From the NCBI GenBank assembly GCA_016706425.1, contig JADJJR010000001.1, forward strand, positions 491,133-555,132: DNA of 64,000 nucleotides, written 5' to 3'. A program made the position numbers and the translations under genes. This DNA comes from Elusimicrobiota bacterium (GTDB lineage Bacteria; Elusimicrobiota; Elusimicrobia; FEN-1173). Positions within the stretch are counted from its first letter, which is position 1. Each line of letters starts with the position of its first letter. Shown piece after piece: positions 3,506 to 64,000 of this stretch. Under the pieces are notes generated by a model. It was not told the DNA's origin. It did no database searches and saw only the letters and a list, made by a program, of their open reading frames with translations.

Positions 3506-3520
3506 CAGGATCTTTACAAC

Positions 3521-3734: not shown

Positions 3735-3798
3735 TTGCCGCCAGGCAACGTACCGGTTTGTAGGACGGGATCAAAGCCGCTCCAAAACGGAGTCTTCC

Positions 3799-5091: not shown

Positions 5092-5095
5092 TCCC

Positions 5096-35700: not shown

Positions 35701-38700
35701 AAGGTACTGACCGGGTTTCTTTAATACGGTCGAGGCGCGGTGGAGGTATTTGAGACCTTGGGCGGTCCGCTCGATCAGATCGAGAACGGCGGCGTCCCGC
35801 GCGCCTCCCGTCAGACCCGCGGCCTCCCAGCGGGTCTCATGGAACAACCAAAAATCGTCCCGCGGTCCGGGGACGGCCCGACCCGCGCGTCGTGCCCCGG
35901 CTTCTTCGGATAAAATCCGCCGTATCTGTTCACGCGCGTTTTCGATCGAATCCAATTCGTGGGTCACGATGCCCCGGGGCGCGGAGGCGCTGACGAGCAC
36001 GGCGATCACGTTCCCCCGGGGATCCAGATTGTCGAGGTACGACCGCGTCATATTGTCCACGGCTTCCGCCGAGCTTTCCCGGTGGGTCGACCGGAGCATG
36101 TACGTCAACGCCGTCCGGGCACCGTCGGGGACACCGTCGCTGAAATTCGAACGCCGCAACACCGCGGCGCCCTTCACGGGGAAAGCGGAACGAAGCGTGA
36201 GGAGAATCAAATCGGCCACGCCCCCGTTCAAAACGAAGGTGATGGCCAAATACAGCGCGGCGATCGGGGTCGAGGAGGCCGACCAATCGAGCGTCAGCGC
36301 GAAGAGCCCGGTCAAGGCCGTTGCGAGAACGAGGACTTCTCCCAGATAACGACGCGTCGCGGGCAATGCGGGAGCCGTCCGGCGGCCCGGCTCCATCGGT
36401 TGGTTTCGAAAATCCGCCCCCCGCCCTTCGCCGTCCCGGCCGCGCAGGCCATCCACAAAGCCCGCCCAGGCCGCCGTTAGCACGCGGGGATTCCGGGTCC
36501 GGACCGCCACCCGGAGGACTCGGAGAATGGTTAACGTTGTTTCGACCAGTCGCAACAGGGGTTTGGAAGCGAGGGGGGAATTGTAAGTGAAGATCAAAAC
36601 CATAGATCGGACAATGTAGTAAGTGCGCGCGGGAGAAAAATTGCCATAAAGGTCCCCGTCCAAACTCTGATGGACGTTGTGTAAAATTTTTTCCCGCACG
36701 GGCGCCATGGCGATTTGGTCGCCGCCTTGTCGCACACGGGAAAACCAATCGCGGTCTTCGTTGCCGAAAAAGTAGCCTGATTTAAAAAGCCCGTGTTTGG
36801 AAAAAGCCTCCAAACGGACCAGGACCGCCGCTGTGGCCACCCCATCCACAGCGGCCTTCTCCCCGGTGGGGACGCCGTTGCCCCGGTCCGAGGCCCATTG
36901 CCCGGGCCAGCGCCACACGTTGTGGTACCAGTTTCGCCACACCCGATCGGGACGGTTTTCAAAGTGGAGGGGCGGCGCCCAGGCCACCCGGTCCGGGGAA
37001 TCGGACTCCGCCGCCACGACCATATCCTCCAAGCTGGACGCCGTGAGGCGCACATCGCTGTCGACCAGGAAAACATAATCCGGTCTGTCGGCGGGCGCCC
37101 GTTCGAGGAGGCGCCTCAGTCCGACGTTGCGACCCTCCGCGGCCCCGGTGTTCCGGTCGTTGACGATCAATGTGCTCCGGGGGACTTGCGCCACGGCCCG
37201 GGCCAGGGTTTCGGCCGGCGCGTCGGTCGAGGCGTTGTCGACCACGATCAACTCCCAAGGGGTTTTCCCAGCGGGCCAGGCGGCCATTCGTTCGATGGCG
37301 CGCACCGTGTCGCCGGTGTCGTTGTGGGTCAATATCAGGATCGCCGCCCGGGGGACGGTGCCAACGGGGCGCGCGGGTCGGGGGGTGGGAGGCGTGGGTC
37401 GTCCCGCGCGGGGGAATCGAATGACGAGAAGGTTCACGGTCGCGTGCAGGCCGAGAAAAACGAGATAGGCCACTTGGGCGGGGGTCAAACCCACGACGGC
37501 CGTTCCATCGGCGGGCAGGCCCAACAGGAGACCCGCCACCGCGACGAGCCCCGCCGCCAAGGCGGCGTTGCCCTTGGCACGGCGGCGATCGCGGGTGAGG
37601 AAATCCCCGAGGTGGAGCACGGCGTAAGCGGCGAGGGACAGACGGACGAACAAATCGAAATCCCCCGGCAGGCCGACGGCCGCGCCGATCCCGGCGGCGA
37701 TGAGCCCGGCGAGACCGGCTTCCGTCGGCACCGAAAGGCCTCGGTAGCGGGCCGCGGTGACATGCAACGCCTTGGGGGTGGACGCGTTCCACAATCGCGG
37801 GAGCCAGAACATCATTCCGCCGACCGTGTTTGGTCCCGGGTCGAAGTTGTTTCGCCAGCGGGCCGCCCAGGTTTCGGCGGCGTCGTTGAACCGGGCGTGG
37901 AGGTCGTTGGTGCCGATGCGGAACGACACGCCGCCCCGCAGGGGGTCGCGGGACACCGTCACGCCGGGTTCGGCGACGGTGGTCCGTCCGGTTTGCATCA
38001 GGTGCTGGAGGGCCAAGTAAAAACGCTGAACCACGCCCGGCCCCGCCAGCGCGATGGGGCGCGAGAGGTAAACCCGCTCGCCCGAGACCAGCTTTTCGAT
38101 GGGCAGGGGGTCCTGGGCGAGGAGGTCCAGATAGGGGTTGTCGGCGGGGATCTCGCGCATCGCGGGAGCGACCACCACGTAGGACACCTGTTGGCGCCGC
38201 CAGAGGGCCATCAAACCGTCGGTGTGGAAGCCCCCCGCCACCAGCACGCCCCGGTCGGCGCCGCGGGCGGCGATGGCGTCGAGGAGGTTTTGGGACAGGG
38301 CCGCGTTCCGGCTCAAGGCCAATTCGCAGAAATCCTCAAAGGGTTTTAATTCCGCGGCCGTGAAGTCCGTCGCGTCCGCGGCCGGGTCAAGGCCCTGGTA
38401 CCGGGCGTTCAGGGCGAGGAGCCCGTCGCGCCGCGCCGTGTAATCGCGCCAGTCCGTCGGGGCCAGCGTGTGGGCGAAGGCTTTTTCCAAAAGCGCCAGG
38501 TCCCGCGCGATTCCGACCAGCGCCCGTTCCCGGGGGGTCCGGGCCAAGGCGTTTTGGACGCGATTTCGACGGACGGCGATTTCCTCCAAAAGGGCCGCGC
38601 GATCGATGGCGTCGGCCGAGGACACGTAATCGATGTAAGCGGAAAGGGGGGCGAAGGCGCGGAGGTCGACGCCGTGGGCGCGCGCCACGGACCGGAGGCG

Positions 38701-39735: not shown

Positions 39736-39857
39736 TCCTAATAGCTTAATGACCCTAGGCGAATGTCGCATTAAGTGGATGTAAATTGCTTGTAACAGTG
39801 AGCCGGCGGGGAAATCGGAAAAATTTCGTGTATGATTCCCTGGAAAGGAGGAAATCA

Positions 39858-40229
39858 ATGCTTTGGCGATTGGCGGCCGATGGGGTCGCCCTCATTCACG
39901 GTTTGTGGGTGCTGGCGGTGGTCCTGGGACCCTTTTGGGCTTTGCGGCGACCGGTGGGTCGGACCTGGGTGGTGACTCTCTTGCTCGCGACGGCTTTTTT
40001 TTGGGCGTTTTATTGCCCTCTGACCGTCCTTGAAAATTTCCTCCGTTCAAATTACGATCCCGCCGGGGTGTACACCGAGGGTTTCCTGGCCCGTTACGTG
40101 CGGCCCTGCGCCGACGCCCGCCGCTGCGGTCCCGCCCTGGCGTGGGGGGTTCGTTTGTGGGCGGGCCTGTGGGTGGTCGTGTACGCTTTTTTGTGGGGGC
40201 GGGAACGCCGCCGAGCGTTGCGGAATTAA
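39858..40229 (+). CDS. DUF2784-like small membrane protein, divergent from the giant minus-strand gene
   Basis: A strong RBS GGAAAGGAGGAAATCAATG precedes it. 123 aa from MLWRLAADGVALIHGLWVLAVVLGPFW... with 3-4 TM helices. Confidence 0.55.
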   Translation: MLWRLAADGVALIHGLWVLAVVLGPFWALRRPVGRTWVVTLLLATAFFWAFYCPLTVLENFLRSNYDPAGVYTEGFLARYVRPCADARRCGPALAWGVRLWAGLWVVVYAFLWGRERRRALRN

Positions 40230-47777: not shown

Positions 47778-47990
47778 ATGGGAAACACCACGATCGAAAA
47801 TACCTCTTGCAAAGAACCCCAAATCGCTTATCTTTGGATCAACGGTCCTCGACGGCGAATCCATCCGGTGGACGCCGACCTGCCCCTTCCGTTGGGGCGC
47901 GGCGTCGGCGGGAGCGGGATCTGTCGCCTTTGTGAAAAATTATTGACACCTTTTTATGCGGACAAACGAGACAAAAACCAAGTCCATTAA
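47778..47990 (+). CDS. Speculative small ORF (70 aa) with a strong Shine-Dalgarno, immediately upstream of and overlapping the start of the giant plus-strand gene
   Basis: AGGAGG lies 6 nt before the ATG. The product is MGNTTIENTSCKEPQIAYLWINGPRRRIHPVDADLPLPLGRGVGGSGICRLCEKLLTPFYADKRDKNQVH. It lies in a lower-GC intergenic region, has no homolog recognised and could be non-coding. Confidence 0.2.
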   Translation: MGNTTIENTSCKEPQIAYLWINGPRRRIHPVDADLPLPLGRGVGGSGICRLCEKLLTPFYADKRDKNQVH

Positions 47991-50900
47991 CCTTCATCGG
48001 CGTATAACGGCGGGCGGCCTGGCGGTCGCCTACGTTTTTAGCAACGTCGTTGGCGCCCACGCCGCGGAAGCGAGCGTGTGGAAGGAGCGCCGCGCGGCCG
48101 CCGTTCGGCAGCGCGCCGCCGGGGCCCAATACGCCCGTCTGCCCGGGGGATTGGCCTCCCCGGCGACCGACGCCATTTTCCCCACCCGACCCTCAACCCT
48201 GTTCCCGACCGACAACCCGCCCGGGACGGAAGAAAACGCCCCCCTGTCTCCGGCGGCGACCCGGGCCTTCGGCTGGTTGCCGGCGGCGGTGACTGCCCAC
48301 GGCGAAATCCGGCGGTTGCATGTGGCCCCCGGGGCGAACACGCCGGTGGTCATTCACCTGCAGGACGTGCACGAAATCGAAGAGGCGCAGCGCCACCTCG
48401 GGGGATTGGTGGAAGCGTTGTCCGCCGCGCGGCGCGCCGACGTGGTGGGCCTCGAAGGCGCCGTCGGCGCATTCAATTTAACCCCCTATCGCGCCGCGTC
48501 CCCCGACGTGGCCCGCGCCCTGGCCGGTGAATTTGTCCGCCTGGGTTACCTCACGGGACCCGAAGCCGCCGCCGTCGCGGCCCCCCGGTCCCCGACCCTT
48601 TGGGGGGTGGAGGACGCCGCCCTCTACAAAAAACACGTGGATGCTTTCGTCGCGTCGGAGCGGACGCGCGCCGTTTTCCTCAAACGCCTTGAGGCGCTGG
48701 ACGCCTCGGCCGCGGCCTTGCGCGGCCGGGTTTACCCCCCGGCCCTGCGCGCCTTGGACGACCGTCGCCTGGCCCACCTTGCGAAAAAGGAATCCCTGGG
48801 GGAATACACCCAATCCCTCTGGGCGGTCGCGGCCGACAAGGCCCGATTTCCGAACGTCGAGCGGTTGGTGAAGGTTTTGATGGAGGAAAAACGCCTCGAT
48901 TTTAAACGGGTGGAAGCGGAGCGGCAGGTCCTTATAGAGGCGTTGGTGCGGGTTCTTTCCCCGGCCGCCCTCGACCGCCTCATCAACCAAAGCCTGCGTT
49001 TCCGGGCCGGCGCGATGACCCACGGCCGATACTTCGCGTTTCTCCAGAATTTCTGCCGGGATCACGGCCTGCGCCTCGCCGCTTACCCGGCCCTTAACGC
49101 CTACATCGCCTACAGCCTATCGGCCGAAACGATTCACCGCGAACGGCTTTTGGAGGAGTTGGACGCCCTGGAACGGACCGCCCTGAAGGGTCTTGCCACC
49201 ACGGACGAGGCCCGGCGTCTTGTGGCGGCCCGCCGCGGTTTGGTTTTGCTTGAGAAACTCGCCCGCCACACCCTGACGCCCGCGGAGTGGGACGCCTATC
49301 GCGGGGACCGCGACGCCCTGCGTCAAATTCCAACCATCCTGGCCGGGTTGACGGGGAAAGGCGCCGAGGCCGAATTGCCCGAGGACTTGCTGGCCCCCTT
49401 CGAAGGTTTTTGCGCCGCCGCGTTGGAGCGCAACCGCGCCCTGGCCGAGAACCTCTTGAATAAAATGAAGGTTGAAAAAGCCTCGACCGGGGTGTTGGTC
49501 ACGGGAGGGTTTCACACGGCGGGCTTGTCCGAGATTTTGCGTGAAAAAGGCGTGTCGTTCGCCGTGGTCGCGCCGCGCTTGTCCCGTGTTCCCGAGGCGT
49601 CCCGCCCGCTGGACGTCTTCGCCCGCGCGCCGCTCCCCATCGAGACGCTGCTCGCCGGGGACGTCATCAATTTGGCCTACGCGCCGCTCACCCAAGTGGA
49701 GGGGACGCTGGCCGACGTCCCCCAGGGGGACGCCCGGCGGCAGGCGGCGGAAGCCCTGTGGGACACGCTTGATTCATTCCTTGGCGAAGTCAAAACCGGT
49801 TTCCAAGGCGAAGACCAAGCCCGGTTTGAGACCTGGGCCTCGGGGTTCAAGTCCATCAAGGCCGTGACCGCCCGGCCCGTAAAATTCCGCGAAACGCTCG
49901 ACGCCGTTTCCATCTATCTTGAGACGCGGTCGGGGGTGCAAAAACCCTTTGTTGTGCTGGCGGCGCCTTTGGGGGGCGAAGAAAGTTTTCCCGCCGCGAC
50001 CCCGGTCTACAGCGGTCGGTTCGCGCTGGATGGAATGGAGGCGAACGTCCGGGTTTACGATGCGCAAGACATTCCCCGCGGCGATTTGGGCGCGGTCGCC
50101 TGGGTGGACGCGGCGTCCGCTCTGCCCCGCCGTTTGTTTGCCGCGCTGCGGCGTCAGATCAACCTTCGCCGTTTGACGTCGGAGGAGCGCCGCATCGAAA
50201 GGGCCCACCGCGTCGCGATCGAAGAGGTTTCGAGGAAGAACGGCATCCCCGTCGAGAAATTGAGTCCTATTTTGGGCCACATCCGGCGCACGCGGGACCT
50301 GGTTTTGCGTTTGGGGGAAGAGCAAAACCTCCCCCTCGTGGACCGACAAATTCTTGCCGTGGCGGCCGCCGCCCACGACATGGGCAAGTTTCACGAAGAT
50401 TGCGCGGAAAGTATATTGGAAAAGCGGTACCACGAGCGCGGGTCGGCGGCGCACAGGGCGCTCGCCGCCCACGAGGAAGCGGTGTTTGAAATGTTGGCCC
50501 GGCACCAATTGAATCTGGGGCCGGACGCTGAATTGGTCCTTCGCGCCCACAGCGCCATCGGACCGCTGGGCCAACACCCGCCGAACGCCATCGAGGGCAT
50601 GACCGAACGCCACGTCCGAATGGCGTTGATCCTCGCCATGGCCGACGTCGGGGACGGTTACCGGGACATGAACCGCGATTATTTGAGAACCCGAATTGAG
50701 ACGGCCGGCTTCCCGGACACGACGGCCCTTTCGACGGAATTTCAAAAGTACGTCCGGGGAGCGGACCGCGGCGGGTTCGGCGGCGCCGCTTCCACCGCCC
50801 AGGCCGCCTTCCAAGAAACGCTGGGTCGCGGCTGGTTCGGCGTGGCCACGGAGCGGACCCTGATCGATCACGCGGTGCGCACGGTCGAAGAGGGGTTGGC

Positions 50901-53900
50901 CGCGGGGACCGATCCAAGCGACGCTCGTCGGTTGGCGCTGACGGTCGCGGCCGTTCAGAAATACAATCTCCCCGGTCTCGCCACGCCCCCGGATGTTTGG
51001 TGGCCACGGCTCGTGGAGTCCCTTTGGCTGCGGGGCGCCACGGGAGCCCCCCGCGGGGAACGTCTCGGGGCCCTGCGGGAAGAGATCAAAAAAGTCGTTG
51101 AGGGGAATCCTTCTCTGGACGCCCTGGGGTTGGACCTGCTGACTCTTTCCCTCCTGTCGCCCGACCGCGTCATCGGGTCCGCCCTCTGGAAAACCCGCGC
51201 CGAAGCGGAATCCTCCGAGACCGGGTTTGTTGAGTCGGTGCGGGGGGAACTTTCGGACGCGGAATACGAACAGATCCGATTCGTTTTAACTTTGACGATT
51301 CAAAACATCCTTCAACACGGGGCTTTTGATCCCCGAACACCGGTGGCCTTGACGGTCTCGCGCAAGGCCGGGTATCTCGTGATCGAGGCGTCCAACGGTT
51401 CTTTCTCCGAATTGCCGCTCCATCCCGACGCGGGCGCGCGAAAGACTCCGTCGGATACGATCACCTTGCCCGGCCGCGTCTACACCAAAACATCCTCCTT
51501 GCTTTTTGGGTTAATGGCCGATGAAAATCTACGGGGGCCCAGCACCAACGACGGGGAAGGGACGTCTTACGTGATCGGCGAGGTTCGTCAAAGCCCGGGG
51601 CCGGTCTCCCGGAAAGCCCTGTGGAGCGATTCCGGTCCCGTGATTAAACGTGCGGAGGGGGCGCCGCTGCGCAAAGTGTCATTCACTTACGTGGCTCCGG
51701 TGATAGAGGCGGACACGCCGACGGCGGTCTCTCTTTTAATGGCGGACGAAGCGTGGAAAAGCGCCGAGAACGCCGCGATCGCTTGGCGGACCGCGCTGGA
51801 CAACCAATTTTTGAAGAATCTGAGCGATCGGGACCGGGAAATGCGAATCGAGGAAATCTTCAACACGCTAACGTCTCTGCGGTCGCGTTTCCCCGACATC
51901 GATCGGTTCAACCTGGAAGCGGAAACGTTGTCTTTGGCCCGTGGGCCCGTGACTCTGTTGGAATGGACGGGCGCGGGTCATGCCGTGGCGGCCAAACGCG
52001 GTGAAATGGAAAACGCCCCCGACCTGGCGCGCCTCGCCCGCGTGGTGCCGACTTTGAACCTGTACCGGTTTTCCAAAATCTTGGAACAGCCCCTGGACAA
52101 TATCGCCCAGCACGGGGACCCCAATGGACCGGCGGCGGTCCGTCTGGTGTTCAATCGCGGCGCCCTCTCTTTGACGGTGTCCAACAGGACCTCGGAACCC
52201 CTTCCGGCGGAATTGGCGGCCGTTCTGTTAAAAACGCACACGCCGGCCGATGAGACCCCCCGTTTTCCCCGGGGACCGCGGTCCGGCCACGGCATCGGGG
52301 CGGCGAGCATGATCATCATGGCCAAGGGACTTTTCGCGCCCGAGGCGCAAGAGCGGCACGCGCGGGACATCCGCATCCGGTTCGCCCGGGAGGAACAGGG
52401 GGACCAGGCCCTGTTTACAACCGCGGTGGATATTCCGGCCCTGCCCCTCGGGGATTCCCAAACAAACACCAACGACGGCCAATCCGGCGCCGCGGCGGTG
52501 GCCCGTTGGTTGAACGATCACCGCGCCGAATTCCGTTTGGTGGCCACGGTCGCCAAAGCGAGCCGTGACACGGACGCGGCCATAACCACCGAGCGGGGGT
52601 CCCAAGGCTACACCGCCGTTGCGCTCCATCCTTATCCGGTGTGGCGCCACCGCGCCAAACTCGATGAACTGGTGGCCGGTTTGGAAGCGGCCGCCCCGGC
52701 CTTAACGGAACCCGGCCTTTTGCGGAACGAATGGCGGGCGCTTCTCTGGCGGGAGTTGGGGCACGCGCGCGCCGCGATCGGACCCGCCGAACCGACCGCG
52801 CCCGGGGCCGCCATCCGACTGGTGGGGGGCGACCTGTCGTCCGCGGAACACGCGCGGGTCAACCGGGCCATCCAGGCCCTCATCAAAGCGGGAAAAGCGG
52901 CGGCCGTTTACGGGGATCGCCCCGGGGTTCAAGAAAACGACAAAGCCCTCGCGACCTTGTCCCCCGCCGAGGCGACCGACGGTTTCGTCCTGGGGTTGCG
53001 CGGGATTTTGCGCCACGCTTTCGACACCGGGGAATGGCCCTCGGATTTCGATTTGATCGTGGTGGAGGGGGACATCCCGGCGGATGTGGCTTTGCACCCC
53101 GGCCATCGTCGCCACCAGGCCTATTTGCCCCGGGCCCTCTTTGACGGGTTGAGGAACCTGCTCCCCACGCTTTCCGGGCGTGCCGACCGAGAGAGCTTCT
53201 GGGAATTGATCCGGGAAATGATTCGCCACGAAATGGAACACATCCGCCACTTTGAAAAAACGGGGAAACCGGGGGGGGAGTCCGCGGTCGACGCGGTGGC
53301 CGCGTCCTCGCGGCCGCGGGCGCTCTTCCGGGTTTTGCACAGCGCGGTGGCCGCGCGGGCGGCGGGGGCCGCGCCGCGGTGGGACAATTTTTTTGACCGT
53401 TTTCGCGGAGAACGGACTTCTTATTTGCACGCCTACCTCCACCTGACGCCGGACCAACACCTGGCCATGGCCACGACCCTGGTCCGGCGGCAATACACCC
53501 GGGAAGACCGGGTCTTGGCGCAGCTTCACCTGGGGGCTGTGTTCGGCGGGTCCGACCCCTGGTCCGTCGTGTTCAAGAAAGCGCTCGCCCTGCTTAAAAA
53601 GAAGAACCTCGTCGACCAGGACCCCGAAACGGGAGACGCGTTCCCTCTCTGGAAGTTCGTTCAAGAATTGACCCGCCAGCACGCCCTGATCCGCGATCCG
53701 CGTCCGATCGGTGAAATCAACGTGATCGCGCAATCCCTGGACCAGTTCGACCCCTGGACACGGGGGGACGACGCCCGCGTCGGCGATTCCCTGCGGTTCC
53801 CCGGCCCCGGTCAATCGATGGCTTTGCCGTTGACGCGGGAGCAATTTGAAAAGCTCTTGGCGGACGGATGGTCGTCGATGAAAACCGCCGACCGGGCGGC

Positions 53901-56900
53901 GTTGTTGGCCCGGGTGTCGTACAACGAGGAAGGCCATTTACGAATAACGCGGGAGGATCTGGATCTGCTGGGCCGGCCGCTCGAGAAATTGAGCCTGGCG
54001 TCCCGGAGCGCGGCCGGTAAAGGCACGCGCTACGCGCGGGAAGATTTCGATGAGACGGGCCAAAAAATCATCCTCGACATCGCCAAGGGTGTTTACACCG
54101 TGCCGGTCGAAGAAGGCTCGCCCCGGGGGATCCTGGAGATCGTTTTGGCCCAGGCGCGGGCCCGCAACCTCGAGACCGGGGCGGGTTTCGAGGTGGATGT
54201 CCACACCAGCCATTTGACCGACCAACAAATCCGCTTAGAGCTCATCCGGCTCGGCTACGAGCCCAATTTCATGGAACGCTTCATGCCCGGATTTGTTCTC
54301 GAAAACCTGCCGGAATGGTTGTACACGCCCGGACTGTACACGCACCCCGCCGAAGGCTCCGCGCCGGTGAAAGTGCTTCGGGTGCGGGAAGCCCATCTCT
54401 TGGACGCGCGGTCCGGCGACTTTTACAAACACAGCGTGCCGGACCTCGATCTGTTGGAGGTGATGTGGCCCGACGCCCACGACACATCCTTCATCGACTT
54501 CATCGTCAGCGGACGGGCTTACGAGGTGTTCAAGCAAGGCAAACGTTTTCAGTTCATCGCCAACATCGACAACTTGGCGGCGGTCCCCTCCCCGGCGTTG
54601 CTCGCGGTGATGCGCCTGACCGGCGCCCCGCTCATCAACGAAGTCGCCCAAAAGCCGAAAGGCGCCAAGGGCGGTTCGGCCATCAAGTTTAGAGCGGGGC
54701 GGGTCCCGGGACCGGTCAATTTCGGCCAGCGGCGGGGTTTGGCCGAAGAGTTCCAGTTCGACGCGGCCTTCTTAAAGGGGTTGTCCCCCGATGAGGCTTC
54801 GGCCTATTTCCCGATGTTCAATACGGCCAACTACGTGGTCGACATCGCGCAATTCTCACGACGGTTCTTCAACGCCCCGGACGCCACGGAATCGGATGTC
54901 GAAGGGATGCTCAAGCGGTTTTACGACGCGCGCAACGACCCGGAGGAACTGCTGGCGATGCGGTTTGATTTGATCAACGATTACCGCCGCCAGACCCAGT
55001 TGTGGGAAAAAGACAAAACCCACCCCGCCCTCCAACCGGCGAGCTTGGCGGGCATGGTGACCTGGCGGGTTCCGACGCTCTTTGTGGAGGTGCCGGCGGG
55101 CGTGGCCGGGGGCTCGGATTCGCGTTTCGAACCCTTAAAAGAGAACATCGATAATTTCACCGCGAACCTCGCCCTGGTGGAACGTTTGGCGGGGGCCGGG
55201 CTTTCCGCCGGGACCCCGGTCGAGACCCTGCGCCCCGACGGCCTCTCCCCGGCCGACGCCGCCCGGTGGAAAAGTCTGGTGACGAAATTCAAAGGCAAGA
55301 CGTTGACGCAGGCGCAAGCGGATTTGGCGTCCAACGTCCGCTCGATTCGGGATTCCTTGGCCCGGGTCGCCGGCAAGCAAGCGCGGGACTACGCGGTCGG
55401 GCCCCCTCCCGCGGCGCCAAAGCCCCGGGCTCCCCCGATCGAACCGATCATCCCGGATTTGGGGGCCGTGAGCGCGGACATCGACCCTCTCGGCAAACTG
55501 AACCAGAGCATTCACAGCCTGAAGAGCATCGGGGACGTGGTTCTTCCCTCCGATCACCCGCTTTACGACCGGGGCGTTCCCCGGGACTTCGAAGTCCACC
55601 TGATCGGCGGCAAGGGCAATTTTCAATATGTGTTCAACGGTCCCTTCGGCCGCGTCCGCGCCCACGCCAGCGGTTTGACGTCCAAGAACAGCGACGATCC
55701 CCGGAAAATCCTTTACGTCGCCCAGGCTTATTTTGATGAGAACTTCGTCCAAGTCCCGGACCGCGTGGCCGCCGATCTGATCCGGGAGACGGACCGGTTT
55801 GATAAGTGGTGGCAAGCGACCCACCCTCCGTTGGAAGGCGCCGGTGATTTCGTCGGCTGGCTGGGGGCCTGGGCGCGAAAATTGCTCACCAACGTCGATT
55901 CCGGTCTCGAAGGCGGCGTCCAGGTGGCGCGTCCACAAGACGCGGCCATCCACGGGGAGGTCGTGCACATTTCCTACGAGGGCCCCTTTTGGGGGGCGGG
56001 GGGGGTGCAGGACGTCGTCACGGAACTGTTGCCGGAATTATCGCGGCAAGGGGTCAAAACCCGTCTTTTCGTTCCTCTTCATCAATTGGGTGTTTCGCGG
56101 GAGGTTCGTGACCTCTTCTTGAGCCGGGGGGTGGAGGGGGTGTCCCAATTCCCCTTGACCCGGGGCAAACACACCCACACCGCCCTGCGGGTAACGACGG
56201 TGGTTGTGGACGGAAAAACTTTTGGCGTTTACGAAACGGAATTCGAGGGCGTGACCGTGAATTTCATCGCCCACCCCGAAATGTTCTCGAATGGCTACGA
56301 GGGCCAGGAAGCCTTTTGGTCGAACGTCCCCGCGGACGTGCGCGAGCGGGTGGCGAACGGGGAAGCGGTGGAATCCTTCCGGTGGGCCTACGCCGGGAAA
56401 GAATACGACGCCCGCCTTCTTCGAACGGCCACGGTGGACGGTCGGGGGTCCTTTGTGTACCGGACCAACTACGGCGGGAAGGAAATCGATTTCGCCGGAT
56501 CCGTCGAGATGTTCCGGGCGCAGCGCACCACACGGGACCTTTATTGGGAAGCCACGTTGTTCTCGGCGGTTTCCGTCCGAGCGATGGAGGCCTTGAATCT
56601 GAAGCCCAGCGTCGTCCAGGCCCACGATTGGCAAGCCGCACAGGCCCTGGCGTACGTTCGAGGACACGCCCCGACCCGGGCGATTCCCGGGCGACGGGCG
56701 TTCCGGGTGGCGGTCAGTGACCGGTACGGGCACGAGCTTTTGACGGAACTGGGCAGCGGGGAGCTGGTCGGGGTTTTCCGCGAAGACGAAGAGGGCCTTT
56801 TGGGCATCACCAACGGGATCAGCCACAAAGGTTGGGACCCCGCCCAGCCCAAGCCCCGTCGGCAACAGCCGGCCCCGGAGGAGAACAAGCCGGTCTTGCT

Positions 56901-59900
56901 CGATTACGACTACGCCCCCTTCAGCGCGGAGAGCCCCGGCGGGAAGGTCAAGAACAAAACACAATTTCAGGAGGCGTCCGGGTTGACGGTGGATCCCACC
57001 GCCCCCCTGTTCGCGAGCGCGTTTCGCATCACCGGTCAAAAAGGCATCGAGGAAATCCTCGGCGCCGCGGCGCGGATCCTCGACAGCGGTGGGCAGATCG
57101 CCATTCAAGGGGTCGCCCACCCCGAAGAGGAGAAGCAGTACAAATACGTCGCGCGGCTGAAGGAATTGCAGAACCGGTTCCCCGGGAAGATGGTGTTCCG
57201 CGAGACCTTCGATAAAGACGCCGTCCCCTATTTGCTCGCGGCCGCGGATTTCTCCCTTTGGCCCTCGGAGTTCGAGCCCTGCGGGGTGGCCCACCAACAA
57301 GCCATGCGCTACGGGGCGGTGCCCATCGGTCGACGCGTTGGCGGTCTGGACACGACGATCATCGATGAGCGGGAGTACCCGGGGCACGGGACGGGATTCA
57401 AATTTAATTTAAAAACGGCGGATTCCCTTTGGTCCGCGGTGGAGCACGCTCTGGCCGTTTACCAAACCGACCCCGCCGCTTACGGGGATATTCAAAAGCG
57501 GGCCATGGTCGGCCCCCGGGATTGGTCGGAGGTCGCGCCGGAATATCTTGACGCCTACACGGCCCTGGACCGGGGCGAAATCCGCGAGACGGACGGGTTG
57601 GGGGACGCCGCCTTGATCACCGTGATTCACAACGCGGGCGCCGGTTACCAAGGGCGTTTGCCGCCGGGCGAGGCCGCGGGCCGGTTCGCCTGGGCCAAAA
57701 GTTTGACCGGGGGGTTCCCCCCGGGATTGAATTTCGACCCGCAGGGCGGGGAGTTTTATGGGTACTTGAACGCGTTGAAAATCGGCCTGGTCGCGCAGAA
57801 CCACCAGCGCCCGGTGCAGTCCGACGCGCTCATCGGCCACCTGCCCGTCGGGGTGGACTTGGCCGCCATCCCCCTTCAACGGGCGGCCGAGGTCCGGTCT
57901 GTCTATTCGGCCTTGGAGGGTTGGTTGGCGACCAAACTGGCCGGCCCCCCGCCCGCCACGGGAAAACAGAACCGGGCGGACACCGTCTGGAACAAGGCGG
58001 CCCTGTTGCGGGACGAGGTCGCCGGGCTGCTTCAAAACACCGATGTGGGCGTCTTCGACGCCGATGGAATTCAACGCCATTCCCAGGCCCGTGTTTTGGG
58101 GTATGGGTTCTCTCAGGATCCGACGGGCGGCGCCCGCGGTCGGTTGGGCCTGAGCGATGAGTTCTTTGAAAGAAACTCCGTCTTGCACCCCCACCTTTTG
58201 GAAGCCGCTTTTCACGAAGCGTACCACGTTCTTTTTGGTCTCGACGCCAAAACCACCCATCACCGCGACGCCCTGCGTCTGCAAGCCGTGCTTTTCTGGG
58301 GGCTTTCGGTCGAGGAGGCCTTCGCCCTTTCTTTAGACCAACTCGAAAACCACCCCAAAAACGCCCTGGGCCGCGCCCTCCGCATTCGCCGGCTCATGCG
58401 GGATTTCCGGGGCGAAGACATTTACGCCCTCCGCGCGCTCCTGCGCGAAAAAATGGTCCAGGGGCGGTTGATCGAGTTTTTGTCCGAAGCCGACGACGCC
58501 CTGTTCGCACCGCTCGCCCTGTCGCCCACCTCCCTGGAACGGCGCGTCCAGGAGCGGATTGATTTGATGCGCCGGGTGGAGGGGGAGGCCCCCCGTTCCC
58601 CTGGACAGGACGACCCCCGTTACGCCGAAGCCCGGCGCACCGAAGAGGATTGGGCCAAGCCCCTCATGGATACGGGCCCCGTGGAGGCGATCCATCCTGT
58701 TTTGAAAGCCATCGCGCTTTTGGACGATGTTGAGGAAACCCAATTGCTGGACGCCCTGGGCGCCGCGGTTGTCAAAGACGCGAAACTCGCGGATCGCCCC
58801 CTGGTGGACAGCGTTTTGTTGATGACCGGCCGCGTCCCCGCCAAATGGGCGAAGTTGCACGGCATCGCTTACCAACGCGTCTACCACCTATCGGCCGAAG
58901 GTCGGAAAGTGTGGGCCGGGGGCCTGGGTCCGGTGCAGGTGTTTCACAGCGACGCGGAGCGCGAAATCACCCGGGATTCTTCGGTCGATATTGCCGACAT
59001 CGAGCCCGATTACACCCATCGGCGCACGGCGGAGGGGTTGGTGCCCGCGGACGGCGTGGCCCCTTCGACCCCGCTCCTGCCCTCCGACGAACCGGTTTTT
59101 GATCTGGAAGTGGTGTTCGAGGACCGTCCGGTGAAAATCCGGGTGCGGCCCATGAAAGGCCCCGAGGGCAACCCGGTGTACCTCTTCCGCGACAACCCGG
59201 ACGGAGAGGCGTTTTTCACGAAACAACTCTACGATTACCGCGGCGGGGGGGACAACCCCGCCAGTTGGGAGGATTTCACCGCTTTTTTCAGCGTCGCCTC
59301 CTTGGCCATCATCGCGCATTTGGAAGAGGCCCGGCTCCGCGTGTTGGGGGCGGCCTGGCGTCCCCCGGTCATCCACGGCAACGACGCCCAGACGGCCATG
59401 GTCAACGTGCTGGTGTCCGAAGCCGTGGCGGGCGGCAACCCGCGGGCCGAGGCCCTGGCGAAAAAAATCCCATTTTTTAAACCCTTGGCCCGGTGGATCG
59501 CGCCCAGTTTTAAAACCCACACCTACGGCAACCGGCAGGGTTACACCTGGGGCCGCCCCACGGATCATTTCGGACTCCTCTCGTTTTTGAGCGGCATTCC
59601 GGCTTGGGACCACAATCGATTGATGGGTTATTTCGCGCGCAGGGGTCCCGAACAGAACGGGTACCCCGACGTCACCTCGGCGGGTATCGCCGCGACCCCC
59701 GGCCACGTGCAGGGTGTGGCCCGCAAGCACGCCTGGGACGTGGCCCGGAAATACGACGATCCCCATCGGGTGGTCGGTATCACCAACGGCGCCAATTTGG
59801 AATGGTCGGCCGGCTTGTTTCGCCGTCTATTGAAACAGGTGGGGGGAGAGAGCGTCGACCAGAACCGGCCCACCGCCGCCCAGGTGAAGGACGCCAAACG

Positions 59901-62900
59901 GTTCGCCAAACAGGAATTTTTCACGGAGCTTTTGGCCGTCAACGACCAAGGCCAACCCAAACATTTGGAATCGGAAGTCTTCAACCGGTTCCAGGATGTC
60001 CTGCGGGACCGCACCACCGGCACCCCCGCGCGGGTGGACCCCGCGATTTTGGCCCAGCCGACCGTCGGTTTTGTCGGTCGTTTGGTGGTTGAAAAGTTCA
60101 ACATGGGCCGGGCCTGGGCGCGTTTTGTGATCCGCGCGTTGGTTCGCGCGGGGGTCAACGTGGTTCTTTTCGCGCCGATTCAGCAAAAAAGCGACCCCTC
60201 GAGCCCCAGCTCGACCATCGCTCTCGCGCTCACGCAATTGGCCGCCAACCTTGACCGCGAATGGAAACCGGGGCACGGTCGCCTTTTGTTTATCGATTCC
60301 CGGGATTCGGAATTGAAAAAGAAGGCGTTGACCTCGCTCGATATCCTCGTTTTGGATTCCGACAAAGACACCGAAGCGAACGGCTACACCGAAGTGGCGG
60401 CCTCCGCGTCGGGCGCTTTGGTGATGGCCCCGCCGTTCCACAACGGCGAGGGGCTGATCCGCGGGCAGGGGATTCCCATCGACTGGTCGGCGCCGGGGCA
60501 CGGCAACACCATTTTGCCCGAAAATCAAAAATCCGAAGCCTACTTGCAATCCCTGCTCCAGGCGACGGAAGTGTATTTTGATCGACCCGACGATTTTGCC
60601 GCCCATCAGGCCACCTCGGTGCGTTTGAGTCGGCCCCTGGAAGCCCGGTTGACGGCGGCGGCCTCCCTGCGCGATTTCAACTTGAGCTACCAACTGCCGG
60701 TGGATGTTCGCAGCGACGGGCGGTGGCGGACGGGCGTTGTGGCCCCCGCGGGCGTCCCGGTCAAGATCGACGCCGTCGTGCGGCTCCGACCGGGAGTGGA
60801 CACACGCCACGTGGAGACCCGCGTTCGCCTGGCCCCGGTGCGGGCCTGGGGCATGGACTGGGGCGCGGTCCAGGAAATAACCCTCCAGCCCACGAATTGG
60901 GTGGTGACGGGCGAACTCGGGTCCCAAAACGTCACCTACGCCGTGGAAGTGGAATTGGCGCCCGGGCAATATGAATTTATCGTGGAAACCCGCGACCGAC
61001 GCGAACGGGAATGGCTGGTGCAGGAGGGGATTTCCTGGGGACAAAACAATCGTTTGACGATCGGGGCGCCCTCGGACCCCGCGGGGCTTCTGCCCTTCTG
61101 GCGTCCCGTGATTCAACAGCTCCGCTTCCTGGGGTGGTCGGATCGGCGGATCGGCGCGGGTCTGGGTTTCCTGGAGGAAGTGCTCCTGATGGGGGGCGTT
61201 TCCTTGATCGCCGGGGCGATGGGGGGCCTGTTCGGCCTGGGGGCGACGGCGGGTTTCTTGTCCGCCTCCGCGGCCGCGGCGGTCCTCTTCCCGTTGGGGC
61301 ACGTCGGCCGTATTTTCTATTACGATTATTCCGGACGGTTGAAGACGCGGCAAACGTCCGCGCGCGAGCTTGTCCGTCTTTTGACGGTGGGCGGGCTGTT
61401 GCGCGCGATCCACGCCGGGCTCTTTTTCGCTTTGCCGTGGGTGTTGACTCTCCTGGCCGGGGCGCCGTTGGCGGGTCCGCCGAGCGGGGTGGTGATCTGG
61501 GCCGCTCAAATCCTTCCTTTCCTGGTTGTTCCCGCTCTCCACGCGCGTTACGATTTCCGCCCCCCGGCCGGCTGGCCGCTCGCCGTTTTCGACCCCCTCG
61601 CCCCTGTAAAAAAATTGGTCCCTGTTCTTCGAGCCATTCGATTCATCCCGACGACAGGCGCGCCGGTAGACGGCGGCGCCTACAACGCGAACCCCCAACG
61701 CACGCGAATTTTGGACAAGGCCTTCGCCCGCTTGGTCAAAGCCGATCCGGCGGCTTTGGCCCAGGTGAACATGACCGCCTTGCGCGCCATCGCCGAATTG
61801 GTCCTCGAAAACACGGAACAACACGGGACACCGGGGGCGGAGGCCTCCCTCGGGCTCCGAATCCAGGATGGCCTAATCCGACTGGAAATATTTAACGAAT
61901 CGGCCGAAGCGCTTCCGACGGCGTTGAACGGGGAATTTTCGGTGGAGCGCCCGAACGGCGCCGTTCCTGAAGCCGAACGGGGCGTCGGCACGCGCTGGGG
62001 ACAAGGCGTGTCAAAAATCCCCACGCTCGCCGGGGTTCTTTACCGCGACGCGGAATCGGACCTTTCTTCAAAAATTCGTTGGTCTTGGCGGCGGGACCCG
62101 TCGGACGGAAAAATTGCCTTTGTCTTCACGGCCCCCGTCCCCGCCGCTCGACCCCAACGGCCGTCCCCCACCGAGTTCGCGACCGAATGGCAGATGTCCG
62201 GTCCCGCGTGGCGACAGGCCAAAACCGCCGCCCGGTCCGTGGTCTTGGTTCTGTTCCTTTCACTGGCCGGTTGGGGCCTGCCGGTGGAATCACCCCGGGC
62301 CCAACCCCCCATCGCCGCGCCCGCGGCGAGCGCAGACCACTACATTGACGCCGAGGCGTACCAGGCCTTCCTGCTCCAGCGCCCCGCCACGCCGGCGATC
62401 CCGCGGGAATACGCCCGGGCGATTTTGTTGGGTCTTTTGCAGGACCTGATCCCGAATCTTCTGGATAAATCAACGCCCGAGAGCTCCACGCCCTCGATCG
62501 AAGAATCCCTTTATTTCTATTCCAACGCCCGGCAGGCCATCGAGGCCATCTTGGATTCCCCGGCCCTCTTGAAGAACATCCAAGCGCCCGAAATCGTGGA
62601 CGCGCTGAAAGCGTTGCGCGCGGATCTTTACGACGAATTCGTTAATAAAGAGGTGGGAGCTCCGGACATCGTTTACTGGAAGAAACGCTTCGCGGCGGTG
62701 CGCGGTCTCCTCGAATTGAGCGCCCCGTTGGTCCGGGAGTTCCTGCGACGGCAACCGGCCGTTCCATCCACCGCCGGCACACGATTGGGGTCTTTGTCGC
62801 CCCTTCGGTCGGAGCGGGAAACCTTGCTGGCCATGGTCGGGGTGCTTGCGGCGGCTCCGCGACCGCGGCGGCGCAGCCTCTGGGAGAAAGCGGGGGCGAT

Positions 62901-64000
62901 AGACGAGGATCGGCCGGCCGAATGGTTGGGTTGGGAAGTGCGGTCCATTCAGTTGCCGGACGGGCAGACCCTGCGCGTGGCCCTGCGGCCGGGCAACCCG
63001 GCGGTCCCCGGCGTGGTTTACATATACGGAGGGGGGGAAGCGGCGTTCAACCCCGCCTTGGATTTTGGCGAAGCCACCGTCGTGATCATCGAGCGGCGCA
63101 CCGAGGTGAAAGCCCAAGAACTGATTCTGAAAGCCGCCGCGGATATTCGTCTGGTCCTTCCCCGACTCGAAAGCCAGAACATCCATTTCCCGCAGGGATT
63201 TTTCCTGGTGGGCCACTCCTTGGGGGGGCACATCGCGGCGGAACTGGCCACCGCGTCGCCGACGGCCTTCGCCCGGAAAATCCGCGGGATTGCCACCATC
63301 AATTGGGCGGTGCCGCAGCCGGCTTTCATCGGGCAAATGAACGCGGTGATCGGGTGGATGAATCAGTCGGTGCGGGTCTTCTCGCTGTTCACTTTCTGGC
63401 CTTTCGTGCCCGCCCAATGGGCGAAGTTCCGTGAAACCGCCATCAAAAATCTCGACCGTTTGATTGTTCCCCTCACGGCGCACGCCTATCAAATCGTGAC
63501 AGGCCGTACCCTGGTGTTCGACAAACACTTCGCGCCCCTCAGCCAGGCCGCGGCGGAATCGGAAGCTCTGCAGCACTATTTGCGGGACCGATTTTCTCAA
63601 ACTTGGGCAACTTTTGAACGGGAAAACACCCTCCCCATCCTCCTCATTCGGAACACAAACGATCCCTTGACCTACGGATTGGCGGCCCGCGTTCGCGACC
63701 TCCACGTTTCCGATGAATTCTCCGACCAACGTCCGGTCCGTTGGGCGGTCAATTTGATGACGGGCGACCACCCGGCGGAGTGGCACAGTCCTCACATGGA
63801 CGCGAGCCAAGTGGCGCTGGTGGCGGACGCCCTAAAGCAGTTTATGAAGCACGCGACGGCGCCGGCGGGGGAAAACGTGCTCGACTTCCCGCCCGCGGTG
63901 GCCCGCGCTCCCCGCGTTGAATTTCGCCAATGGGGCCTCTTGGGTTCCCTGGGTTTTGCGGTGGGGCTCGCGACCCTGTCGATGGTCTATTTGGCCGGTG
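47956..64000 (+). CDS. Giant multidomain protein, 5' part (at least 5348 codons open to the window end, so not in the ORF track). Order: signal-like N-terminus, conserved N-terminal module, HDIG, GHKL kinase-like x2, UGPase-like, glycogen-synthase-like GT-B, alpha-glucan-phosphorylase-like GT-B, beta-rich domain, TM cluster, GHKL #3, GxSxG alpha/beta-hydrolase, TM helix
   Basis: Frame 1 has no stop from the ATG at 47956 to nt 64000. The previous frame-1 stop is at 47944-47946. The N-terminus is [42 protein letters not shown]. I spot-translated multiple segments (listed in the domain entries) and all are in frame 1. Confidence 0.8.
   Translation, partial: [5348 protein letters not shown]
48250..49600 (+). 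other. Conserved N-terminal module paralogous to the minus-strand giant protein
   Basis: ...[26 protein letters not shown]...VVGLEGAVG...APRSP...[18 protein letters not shown]...GRYFAFL...[15 protein letters not shown]...[10 protein letters not shown]...[23 protein letters not shown]...[13 protein letters not shown]...FAVVAP. Confidence 0.6.
50250..50720 (+). other. HDIG-type HD phosphohydrolase domain
   Basis: [40 protein letters not shown] (HD at 50374-50379) with downstream conserved His/Asp (..[10 protein letters not shown].., ..[10 protein letters not shown]..). Confidence 0.6.
51230..51650 (+). other. GHKL/HATPase_c-like domain 1 (RsbW/SpoIIAB-type Ser kinase fold)
   Basis: The N-box-like motif is [42 protein letters not shown]. 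A G-rich segment lies downstream ([11 protein letters not shown]). Confidence 0.5.
52000..52450 (+). other. GHKL/HATPase_c-like domain 2
   Basis: [37 protein letters not shown]...[15 protein letters not shown]. Confidence 0.5.
53980..55000 (+). other. UDP-glucose pyrophosphorylase (UDPGP/UGPase family)-like nucleotidyltransferase domain with a divergent G-loop
   Basis: [16 protein letters not shown] corresponds to UGPase [30 protein letters not shown] corresponds to [36 protein letters not shown]...[15 protein letters not shown] corresponds to YIFVSNIDNLGATVDL...EVTNKTRADVKGGTL. Confidence 0.6.
55960..57600 (+). other. Glycogen/starch-synthase-like GT-B (GT5-like) domain
   Basis: The N-terminal motif is [40 protein letters not shown] (compare GlgA EvAPfaKtGGLgDVvgaLPkaL). 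The C-terminal half reads ...[37 protein letters not shown]... then ...[37 protein letters not shown]. Confidence 0.7.
58870..60520 (+). other. Second GT-B domain resembling the alpha-glucan phosphorylase (GT35/GlgP-like) and glycogen-synthase family
   Basis: [30 protein letters not shown] (compare aYFSmEfgl...YsGGLGvLAGD), ...[14 protein letters not shown]..., ...[20 protein letters not shown]... and the C-terminal Rossmann half [15 protein letters not shown]...VVLFAPI... Confidence 0.5.
61740..61960 (+). other. GHKL/HATPase_c-like domain 3 (clearest anti-sigma-factor-kinase-like N-box)
   Basis: [46 protein letters not shown] polytopic TM cluster precedes it (about 61130-61560). Confidence 0.55.
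62950..63800 (+). other. Alpha/beta-hydrolase (lipase/esterase-type) domain
   Basis: The nucleophile elbow is [16 protein letters not shown] (GHSLGG at about 63211-63228). It is preceded by [12 protein letters not shown] (an oxyanion-region-like motif). Downstream Asp/His candidates are ...NTNDPLT... and ...GDHPAEWH. Confidence 0.55.

Follow-up and report, generated by a model that had tools for sequence, protein, structure and literature searches.

Why should an Elusimicrobiota bacterium carry, in a single reading frame, a domain resembling UDP-glucose pyrophosphorylases (UGPases) and two domains of the kind found in glycogen synthases and glucan phosphorylases, and what might such an arrangement do? 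The question arises from a window of 64,000 nucleotides (nt), meaning here the whole stretch of DNA that was analysed (GCA_016706425.1, contig JADJJR010000001.1, positions 491,133 to 555,132, forward strand), in which an initial annotation had placed three consecutive carbohydrate-active domains at nt 53980-60520. We find that these domains make up the most strongly conserved enzymatic block of one Elusimicrobiota protein of 9,577 residues. The reading we favour, to which we give a probability of about 0.5, is that the block couples the synthesis of a nucleoside diphosphate (NDP) sugar to glycosyl transfer within a giant multi-enzyme protein.

An enzymatic block inside a giant protein

A six-frame check of the window revealed a stop-free frame on the plus strand from nt 47947 to the window end at 64000, whose first ATG lies at 47956 and which comprises at least 5,348 codons. 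A program-made ORF list omits frames that run off the window and accordingly has no long plus-strand entry between 53980 and 60520. Residues are numbered from this ATG at 47956, such that residue n begins at nt 47956 + 3(n-1). A 9,577-residue product with the identical start has been called in GCA_016702405.1 (JADJDY010000001.1, gene start at ~612910) and GCA_016720205.1, and two of the metagenome-assembled genomes (MAGs) that hold this gene differ from the window by 4-6 mismatches over 21 kb. The motifs SAAGKGT (54007), MWPDAHDT (54463), NIDNL (54562) and KGG (54667) all fall in one plus-strand frame, and the similarities of the three domains lie far beyond chance. The domains are real, belong to one open reading frame (ORF) and lie at the coordinates first proposed, with the end moved slightly outwards, from 60520 to about 60693, where domain 3 finishes. 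The three domains thus correspond to residues ~1989-4246 of the 9,577-residue product, and are therefore not a modest three-domain fusion enzyme.

An independent relative was found by scanning metagenomes. The contig Ga0268298_10001478 (JGI; hereafter L007) holds a single open frame of 4,701 codons that is collinear with window residues 1934-5348 at 79% amino acid identity and likewise contains the displaced segment described below. Assembly GCA_016706945.1 instead splits the giant gene into two called products, of 2,765 and 6,810 amino acids (aa), with the break at window position ~56253 (L006 position 19685), inside the insertion of domain 2; this split is probably a consensus error of that assembly.

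The features of the block and its surroundings in the protein are listed below; all lie on the plus strand.

47956..64000, plus: giant ORF, first 5,348 codons in the window, continuing past the window end
48004..48063, plus: N-terminal hydrophobic segment (aa 17-36), ITAGGLAVAYVFSNVVGAHA, followed by AE; from a hydrophobicity heuristic
52981..53919, plus: helical module, no family assigned; HExxH motif, HEMEH, 53227-53241
53920..55239, plus: domain 1 (aa 1989-2428), sugar-1-phosphate nucleotidyltransferase of predicted UDPGP fold; SAAGKGTR 54007-54030, WPDAHD 54466-54483, NIDNL 54562-54576, KGAKGG 54658-54675, FNTANY 54817-54834, RFEPLK 55123-55140
55240..55959, plus: conserved linker or adapter (aa 2429-2668), no recognised family
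55960..56709, plus: domain 2, N-terminal half (aa 2669-2918), glycogen/starch synthase of glycosyltransferase family 5 (GT5); GAGGV in place of KTGGL 55987-56007, ~145-aa insertion 56089-56520, AHDWQ 56620-56634
56710..57567, plus: domain 2, C-terminal donor-binding half (aa 2919-3204), GT5; FRITGQKG 57022-57045 (Arg300/Lys305) and SEFEPCG 57265-57285 (Glu377, E. coli glycogen synthase numbering)
57592..57816, plus: displaced GT5 segment 'S' (aa 3213-3287); ITVIHNAGAGYQG 57616-57654 (TxHN strand), LNALKIGL 57766-57789 (LKAG helix)
57817..58665, plus: inter-domain region (aa 3288-3570), no family; second HExxH motif, HEAYH, 58213-58227
58666..60693, plus: domain 3 (aa 3571-4246), GT-B; VWAGGLGPV 58909-58935, IHGNDAQ 59371-59391, KTHTYGNR 59512-59535, GITNGAN 59776-59796, GRLVVEK 60076-60096, DTEANGYTEVAAS 60367-60405
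60694..61125, plus: region directly after domain 3 (aa 4247-4390), conserved and collinear in the homologue P0081
61156..61539, plus: transmembrane-like hydrophobic cluster (aa 4401-4528); from a Kyte-Doolittle scan, a heuristic

A nucleotidyltransferase followed by two GT-B domains

The UGPase likeness of domain 1, first suggested by its NIDNL and K..KGG motifs, is borne out at several levels. The domain scores 27.0 and 29.7 bits against the Pfam UDPGP model (PF01704), above the gathering cut-off of 22, and a phmmer search of Protein Data Bank (PDB) sequences returns UGPases only, aligned across WPDAHD...NIDNL...KGG. A profile built from 12 sequences of the family matches PDB UGPases with an E-value of 7.8e-11, and its alignment reaches the 'MNSFNT'-like and FNTNN motifs. 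The AlphaFold2 (AF2) model (predicted local distance difference test, pLDDT, 75.7; predicted template modelling score, pTM, 0.78) finds UGPases or UDP-N-acetylglucosamine pyrophosphorylases (UAP) as all of its top 50 Foldseek matches in the PDB, with E-values down to 9e-13 and TM scores of 0.5-0.56. The PGHGD histidine, NxDNL, K..KGG and FNTNN align residue by residue to yeast and fungal UGPases, and the lysine of RFEPLK may, by motif likeness rather than by tool alignment, be the catalytic lysine of the UGPase RFxPVK motif. One relative of domain 1 bears the NCBI name 'UTP--glucose-1-phosphate uridylyltransferase'.

The glycine-rich loop had initially been read as degenerate, and the domain as a possible sensor pseudo-enzyme; the comparison with relatives contradicts both. 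UGPases proper carry a GGLGT(S/T)MG loop, and G-x-G-T-R is the usual signature of sugar nucleotidyltransferases, as in LAAGKGTRM of GlmU and GGQGTRLG of UAP. SAAGKGTR reads as a conserved G-x-G-T-R rather than a degenerate loop, and its arginine is presumably of the UAP and bacterial nucleotidyltransferase type, not that of GGLGT(S/T)MG. Among 18 domains of the family the G, G and R of this loop never vary; little variation, or none, is seen in the W and H of WPDAHD, in N-x-(D/E)-N and G..GG, in the N of FNTAN and in the K of RFEPLK. Because the loop and the catalytic motifs (H of PGHGD, N-I-D-N, K..KGG, FNTxN and RFxPxK) are conserved in ~18 relatives, domain 1 appears to be an intact member of the UGPase/UAP fold and not a decayed pseudo-enzyme. 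It might still use a different NDP-sugar, as was also suggested at first. The ratio of nonsynonymous to synonymous substitution rates (dN/dS) of domain 1, calculated after Nei and Gojobori for the window against L007, is ~0.095; dS is saturated at 1.1-2.0, so that this and all ratios below are approximate.

Domain 1 does not stand alone. In every relative the HExxH module lies upstream of the nucleotidyltransferase, and this two-module unit was recovered in ~20 clusters. A profile of the module from 14 relatives scores 365 bits over aa 1676-1989, and neither Pfam nor PDB sequences gave a match to it. The idea that such a module precedes every enzyme domain was rejected, as the module profile finds a single copy in the protein; the second HExxH region, around HEAYH, is unmatched by this profile and shows no detectable relation to the first. 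An exhaustive HMMER search of 1.84 billion representatives with a two-sequence profile of domain 1 and the 300 residues upstream matched 36 proteins, ~20 of which span the whole unit of ~750 residues. Many of them are very long (3,140, 4,332, 2,429, 2,647 and 5,953 aa), and no ordinary UGPase is found among the 36. A word-indexed protein search with domain 1 retrieved a single relative, and a profile scan of genome contigs with the domain 1 alignment retrieved none. In a distant relative with 42% GC (L001; ENA contig ERZ25039529:contig_99937, 905-3754 and 3940-7661) the unit is frameshifted at ~nt 5613, a 949-aa product containing a PIG-L (LmbE-type deacetylase) domain lies ahead of it, and the neighbouring domains are unlike those of the window. 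The linker that follows domain 1 (aa 2429-2668) has no Pfam match; it is 82% identical to that of L007, with a dN/dS of 0.084.

The GlgA-like character assigned to the second domain is supported. Domain 2 exceeds the Pfam gathering thresholds for PF08323 (86 bits) and PF00534 (34.7 bits), and scores 228.6 bits against the NCBIfam glgA model TIGR02095, under its curated cut-off of 328.45. A word-indexed protein search returned ordinary GlgA only, and phmmer matches the glycogen synthase of E. coli in the PDB at E ~1e-30, with FRITGQKG aligned to RLTSQKG and SEFEPCG to SRFEPCG. The Arg and Lys of RxxxQK and the Glu of EPCG are present; they correspond to Arg300, Lys305 and Glu377 of the E. coli enzyme, in which the lysine of KTGGL is Lys15. 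The GT-B core is confidently modelled by AF2, and its best structural match is E. coli glycogen synthase (2qzs; TM score 0.77, normalised on the target), with the E377A mutant entry 3cop also among the matches.

The segment order of domain 2 is odd. Against a hidden Markov model (HMM) built from 56 ordinary GlgA sequences, model positions 5-46 map to aa 2671-2711, 104-154 to aa 2856-2905 and 214-477 to aa 2919-3204, the last being the C-terminal half with 186.6 bits. Residues 3219-3280 (ITVIHNAGAGYQG...YLNALKIGL), which lie behind this half, align to model positions 159-208. The counterpart of the segment in the homologous giant protein P0081 is unambiguous: window residues 3213-3287 share 39% identity with P0081 residues 2194-2267 (blastp, E 3.5e-10), and P0081 residues 2267-2570 match window residues 2920-3202. 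Because P0081 2194-2267 directly precede the C-terminal half of that protein, where PF08323 is contiguous and in canonical order, the segment with the TxHN strand and the LKAG helix is, by alignment, transposed to behind the C-terminal half of domain 2. Such an order would be expected from a duplication of the block formed by segment and C-terminal half, followed by two deletions. In GT-B enzymes the last helix runs back to the N-domain, which makes it topologically plausible that the displaced tail could re-insert there.

Domain 3 is harder to place. Searched alone against PDB sequences with phmmer it gives nothing at E <= 1, and a word-indexed search finds two relatives, one of them an Omnitrophica MAG protein annotated as glycogen/starch synthase. 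In the window it scores 25.7-37.8 bits against PF08323, above the gathering threshold, and 14.4 bits against TIGR02095 (cut-off 328.45). When the members of the domain-3 type are scanned one by one, PF08323 matches all seven (best E 1.9e-13), PF00534 two and the phosphorylase model PF00343 none of the seven; in NCBIfam, glgA matches six of the seven (best 1.4e-14) and TIGR02094, the alpha-glucan family phosphorylase branch of glycosyltransferase family 35 (GT35), three (best 1.2e-5), these being E-values given without bit scores or cut-offs. In hhalign, a three-sequence profile pairs with that of GlgA along 467 columns across both halves (probability 97.9%, E 2.8e-12). In a search of solved structures the seven-sequence profile has as its best match the alpha-glucan family phosphorylase 9l6i (E 1e-8, ~320 positions), with granule-bound starch synthase (E 0.15) and classical GlgP (E 0.4) further down. 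A simple GT5 assignment was revised on this account: both signals are present, with GT5 models outscoring GT35 models in Pfam, NCBIfam and hhalign.

Among the motifs of domain 3, H-x-N-D-(A/G)-Q and TNG are conserved, as are T-H-T, GRLVxEK and TEA(N/A)G across eight sequences of the type (six distinct proteins and two close relatives of the window), and the His (TxHN), Arg/Lys (RxxxxK) and Glu of GT5 are retained, with W-x-GGLG instead of KTGGL, which we liken to the 'YSGGLG' of phosphorylases. In the column of the lysine that binds pyridoxal phosphate (PLP; EASGTSGEK in 9l6i) there is Ala in the window, L007 and P0081 and Asp in P0080, P0082, P0085 and P0002; P0107 has an alignment gap there, and the statement covers the seven members with an occupied column. 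The GlgP-like assignment of the initial annotation therefore survives in part, as a GT-B domain with phosphorylase resemblance, and fails in that PF00343 and the PLP lysine are missing and GT5 models fit better. We file domain 3 as a putative unclassified GT-B domain between GT5 and the TIGR02094 branch of GT35, apparently without a PLP site; lacking this lysine, it is more likely to depend on an NDP-sugar than to be phosphorolytic. One review groups GT3, GT4, GT5, GT20 and GT35 as one related cluster sharing the catalytic Lys, Arg and Glu (PMC11046441). The inter-domain region before domain 3 (aa 3288-3570) is collinear with P0081, and the region after it (aa 4247-4390), which has no Pfam match at E <= 1, could, to judge from its sequence, be a glycan-binding module.

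A proposed coupling of synthesis and transfer, and its alternatives

The dN/dS values are lowest in the displaced segment (0.045), the N-terminal part of domain 2 (0.055), domain 3 (0.059) and the C-terminal half of domain 2 (0.064), followed by domain 1 (0.095), the region after domain 3 (0.11) and the region between domains 2 and 3 (aa 3288-3570; 0.13), compared with 0.17-0.19 for the transmembrane region and the remainder downstream. Within the visible protein, constraint is strongest in the enzyme-like domains, with the linker and adjacent unassigned regions nearly as constrained (0.08-0.13 versus 0.045-0.095). This pattern argues against both decay and an assembly artefact.

Further evidence comes from the company that the domains keep. 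Local HMM searches among the 36 relatives from the exhaustive search place a domain-3-type GT-B together with the HExxH-nucleotidyltransferase unit in six proteins, namely the window protein, P0080, P0081, P0082, P0085 and P0107. The unit precedes the GT-B in the window, P0081 and P0107 and follows it in P0080, P0082 and P0085, and a GlgA-type domain lies between the two only in P0081 and the lineage of the window. Recurrent fusion in two orders is a classical signature of functionally linked modules, and the co-occurrence in six proteins therefore argues for coupled NDP-sugar synthesis and glycosyl transfer. Two of the six, P0080 and P0085, are exported long proteins in which a reading of the sequence (not a Pfam match) suggests further modules of metabolic appearance: P0080 would have a stretch like Glu/Leu dehydrogenase and P0085 one like phosphofructokinase.

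We propose the following model. The region would be the enzymatic core of a single giant multi-enzyme protein of an Elusimicrobiota bacterium, a protein that is probably exported or anchored in the membrane. Domain 1 most likely still catalyses the reaction of a nucleoside triphosphate (NTP; probably UTP) with a sugar-1-phosphate to an NDP-sugar and pyrophosphate, and the product would be handed to the neighbouring retaining GT-B glycosyltransferases, which may attach the sugar (glucose being most likely) to an alpha-glucan or to some other acceptor. Domain 2 would be a GlgA-type synthase with an intact donor half and a remodelled acceptor half, marked by the loss of the lysine, the insertion and the transposed 'HN' strand, which could fold back into its N-domain. 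UDP-glucose-using GT5 synthases are known, according to a review (PMC11046441, section 5.1.2.4). The data show what the domains are, how their motifs are conserved, the rearrangement, the purifying selection and the joint occurrence in relatives; catalytic activity, UDP-glucose as the intermediate, its hand-over, the acceptor and the cellular location are what we infer here.

Several observations weigh against this model. Domain 1 covers 77 of the 413 positions of the Pfam UDPGP model (161-237). The KTGGL lysine is lost in domain 2, where GAGGV is aligned, identically in L007, and Trp replaces it in all members of the domain-3 type. Positions 155-213 of the GlgA HMM are missing in place, with 14 residues where ~59 are expected, and the displaced segment has an AF2 pLDDT below 50 and so is not placed in the model. 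Substrate identity is deduced solely from the nearest structures and activity is predicted, and the C-terminal 4,229 of the 9,577 residues lie beyond the window and outside the analysis. Most awkward is the predicted location. At the N terminus, positive charges precede a hydrophobic segment of 20 residues and then AHA-AE, and aa 17-36 look like a Sec signal peptide or signal anchor. The first comparable hydrophobic cluster after it is at aa 4401-4528; aa ~40-4400 would therefore lie on one side of the membrane, and the whole enzymatic block would, by these hydrophobicity heuristics, be extracytoplasmic. By the same heuristic, comparable N-terminal segments are present in 15 of the 20 relatives that start with M and have at least 700 aa, and P0100 has a twin-arginine-like SRRTFLK motif. 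NTPs and sugar phosphates are not normally available outside the cytoplasm, so that such a placement is hard to reconcile with the need for NTPs, and the source of nucleotides behind the export signals is the main unexplained point of our reading. A like problem is described for glycolytic domains in an Omnitrophota preprint, where overlooked membrane spans are suggested as the cause (bioRxiv 10.1101/2023.11.21.568195).

The same difficulty lends weight to a non-catalytic use, in which a giant exported surface protein would employ the domains for binding or as a scaffold, their partners being glycans, sugar nucleotides or other proteins, with no NDP-sugar chemistry. The absence of NTPs at the predicted location, the loss of the KTGGL lysine in both GT-B domains and the rearrangement of domain 2 with its 145-aa insertion would all fit, as would the metabolic domains with unassigned roles that the Omnitrophota giant-protein preprints find in predicted extracellular regions. 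However, residues that only catalysis would call for have been kept (G-x-G-T-R, the His, NIDN and the RFEPLK Lys in domain 1; Arg, Lys and Glu in both GT-B domains), and the dN/dS of the domains is ~2-4 times below that of the transmembrane region and downstream sequence, albeit with linkers nearly as constrained (0.08-0.13). We consider this use unlikely, while giving it real weight.

Alternatively, the protein might act on sugar-1-phosphates or scavenged nucleotide sugars, either extracellularly or within a host or prey cell; in that case domain 1 might run pyrophosphorolysis, and domain 3 might use a phosphate-activated donor directly. Export signals in most relatives, including the twin-arginine-like motif of P0100, agree with this proposal, as do the relationship of domain 3 to phosphorylases and the precedent of the Chlamydia inclusion, in which secreted glycogen enzymes work on imported UDP-glucose (PMC4829429). 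The proposal is speculative, though, the neighbouring genes being ordinary housekeeping genes and domain 3 having no PLP site, and we regard it as rather doubtful. An extension of our own model deserves the same reserve. The protein may be a self-contained exported line for glycan synthesis on one polypeptide, with its own UDP-sugar pyrophosphorylase and two synthase-type GT-B domains (one circularly rearranged, one a PLP-less relative of the phosphorylases), and may build an alpha-glucan or glycosylate a target beyond the producing cell's cytoplasm; a host or prey cell would be one such setting, and an unusual periplasm with a supply of nucleotides another. We put this forward tentatively, as a possibility with a small share of the odds.

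The function originally suggested, a GlgA-like synthase physically coupled to a GlgP-like phosphorylase so that polymerisation and trimming go together, with the UGPase-like domain as a sensor, fares worse. It can draw on 9l6i as the best solved-structure match of the domain 3 profile (E 1e-8), on the weak TIGR02094 matches of three of the seven domain-3 members and on the aromatic residue before GGLG that resembles phosphorylase 'YSGGLG'. Against it stand the Ala or Asp at the PLP-lysine position in the seven members (P0107 having a gap), the failure of PF00343 to match any of the seven, the higher scores of GT5 models in more of the domain-3 members, and the intact, conserved catalytic motifs of domain 1. 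The lack of a PLP site had itself been named at the outset as an outcome that would overturn the scheme; with the PLP lysine absent from these members, coupled phosphorolysis is not supported, and we judge this arrangement quite improbable. Finally, a long frame or odd segment order produced by mis-assembly or by a decaying pseudogene, to which the two pieces called in GCA_016706945.1 (2,765 and 6,810 aa) and the frameshift of the distant L001 might point, has a negligible chance and was rejected, given two other MAGs near-identical over 21 kb, the same segment order in the independent 4,701-codon open frame of L007 (79% aa identity) and a dN/dS well below 1 everywhere.

Surroundings, known systems and significance

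The N-terminal ~700 residues of the giant protein share 40-42% identity with the N-terminal ends of P0081 and P0096, and the stretch at window 48355-49527 (aa ~130-525) has HLQDVHEIEEAQ and GGFHTAGL motifs and a weak Pfam match to the ChaN/Tiki superfamily (PF04187, E 0.008); by sequence, this N-terminal stretch resembles a head domain that the family has conserved. It is followed at window 50068-52803 (aa 705-1616) by ~900 residues without counterpart in P0081, inside which there is a weak HD-domain match at ~nt 50272-50547. Motifs resembling the N-box of GHKL/histidine-kinase-type ATPases occur at nt 51298 (IQNILQHG), 52093 (LDNIAQHG) and 61804 (LENTEQHG); none of the three was detected by Pfam. 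Weak alpha/beta-hydrolase matches (Abhydrolase_6, E 1e-4) fall at window 63100-63800 (aa ~5060-5290), with a GHSLGG nucleophile-elbow motif at nt 63211 and single hydrophobic segments flanking the region. A blastp comparison of the protein with itself gave no internal repeats at E < 0.01.

Some 8 kb upstream of the giant gene and divergent from it lies a second giant ORF (window 29719-39858, minus strand) of 3,379 codons, for which the MAGs give a product of 3,338 aa and in which one domain resembles GT2 or rhamnosyltransferases; Omp85, YebC, RuvCAB, SpoIID and QueA genes are found between the two. The other genes of window 1-47000 are ordinary for a diderm and include a large surface protein with Ig, CARDB and fn3 domains (317-3505), MetY, MetX, a phosphate porin, an ABC transporter, a CusB/AcrB/OEP efflux set, a DsbA-like protein, an M48 peptidase, a photolyase and a tRNA-Phe at 22643. 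No glgB, glgC, glgX or glgP was seen in window 1-47000.

The closest characterised relatives of domain 1 are the eukaryote-type UGPases of PF01704 (Arabidopsis At3g03250, 1z90/2icx; sugarcane, 5weg; yeast Ugp1p, 2i5k), with which it has the fold in common as well as the central PGHGD-like, NxDNL, K..KGG and FNTNN motifs, next to a G-x-G-T loop and RFxPxK lysine of its own. Identity is ~15-17%, however, and PGHGD has become PDAHD. Unlike UGPases, domain 1 has a family-specific helical insertion and, in the AF2 model, no C-terminal beta-helix, and it is always fused to the upstream HExxH module, in exported or giant proteins. Domain 2 resembles the GT5 enzyme GlgA of E. coli (2qzs/3cop/3d1j) in its aligned RxxxQK and EPCG motifs, its PF08323 and PF00534 matches and its best structural match, but differs in GAGGV for KTGGL, the 145-aa insertion, segment 155-213 standing behind the C-terminal half and its situation within a 9,577-aa protein. 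Likewise, domain 3 aligns with the alpha-glucan family phosphorylase of Segatella copri (9l6i; TIGR02094 branch of GT35) over H-x-N-(D/E), T-H-T, TNG, R..(Y/E)K and E-A-x-G, and departs from it in having Ala or Asp for the PLP lysine, no PF00343 match and higher scores for GT5 models. The secreted glycogen enzymes of Chlamydia trachomatis (Gehre et al. 2016, PMC4829429) offer a functional analogy only, that of a glycogen synthase working on UDP-glucose outside the bacterial cytoplasm. Those enzymes are separate proteins delivered by type 3 secretion into the host vacuole.

At the level of the whole protein, the nearest counterparts come from Omnitrophota and related phyla, whose multi-enzyme giant proteins (bioRxiv 10.1101/2023.11.21.568195; 10.64898/2026.06.07.730766) are likewise very long ORFs tiled with enzyme-like domains. 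GT5 (PF08323) and GT1 (PF00534) are there among the commonest domains, with HATPase-like and HD domains; the 2026 preprint recognises a 'multi-enzyme metabolic' giant class and counts PF08323 in 153 and PF00534 in 127 long proteins, and West-Roberts et al. report very large genes in Elusimicrobiota also (bioRxiv 10.1101/2023.11.21.568195). The domains found in our protein, UDPGP, GT5, GT1 and, weakly, HD and alpha/beta-hydrolase, fit these descriptions, and giant proteins rich in GT5 and GT1 are a kind already described in the preprints. At 9,577 aa, however, it falls below the threshold of 10,000 residues used in the 2026 survey (10.64898/2026.06.07.730766). In term searches of the two preprints, 'UDPGP' and 'pyrophosphorylase' were absent from the 2026 preprint and 'UDP-glucose' from the 2023 one, a rearranged GT5 or a PLP-less GT5/GT35 intermediate not being among the terms searched for. 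By these limited searches of two preprints, the fusion of a donor-making unit to transferases, the rearranged GT5 and the PLP-less intermediate appear undescribed.

What is known of the giant multi-enzyme proteins in Omnitrophota, Elusimicrobiota and related phyla consists mostly of lists of Pfam matches, in which the roles of GT5 and GT1 are unassigned. The locus offers a concrete and testable sub-assembly, a predicted donor-making enzyme fused to two transferases, in which the pairing of nucleotidyltransferase and GT-B recurs in six proteins and in two orders, and whose donor-transferase block is more conserved than the transmembrane region and the ~800 residues downstream. It also shows a GT-B fold in which a strand-helix segment of the core has been transposed in nature and has persisted under strong purifying selection, and it contains, in domain 3, a GT-B domain that links glycogen synthases with alpha-glucan-family phosphorylases without the PLP lysine. 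It sharpens, too, the open puzzle of nucleotide-dependent enzymes placed behind export signals. If a self-contained exported line for glycan synthesis does exist on this polypeptide, the HExxH and nucleotidyltransferase unit would represent a new, always-exported branch of the UGPase superfamily.

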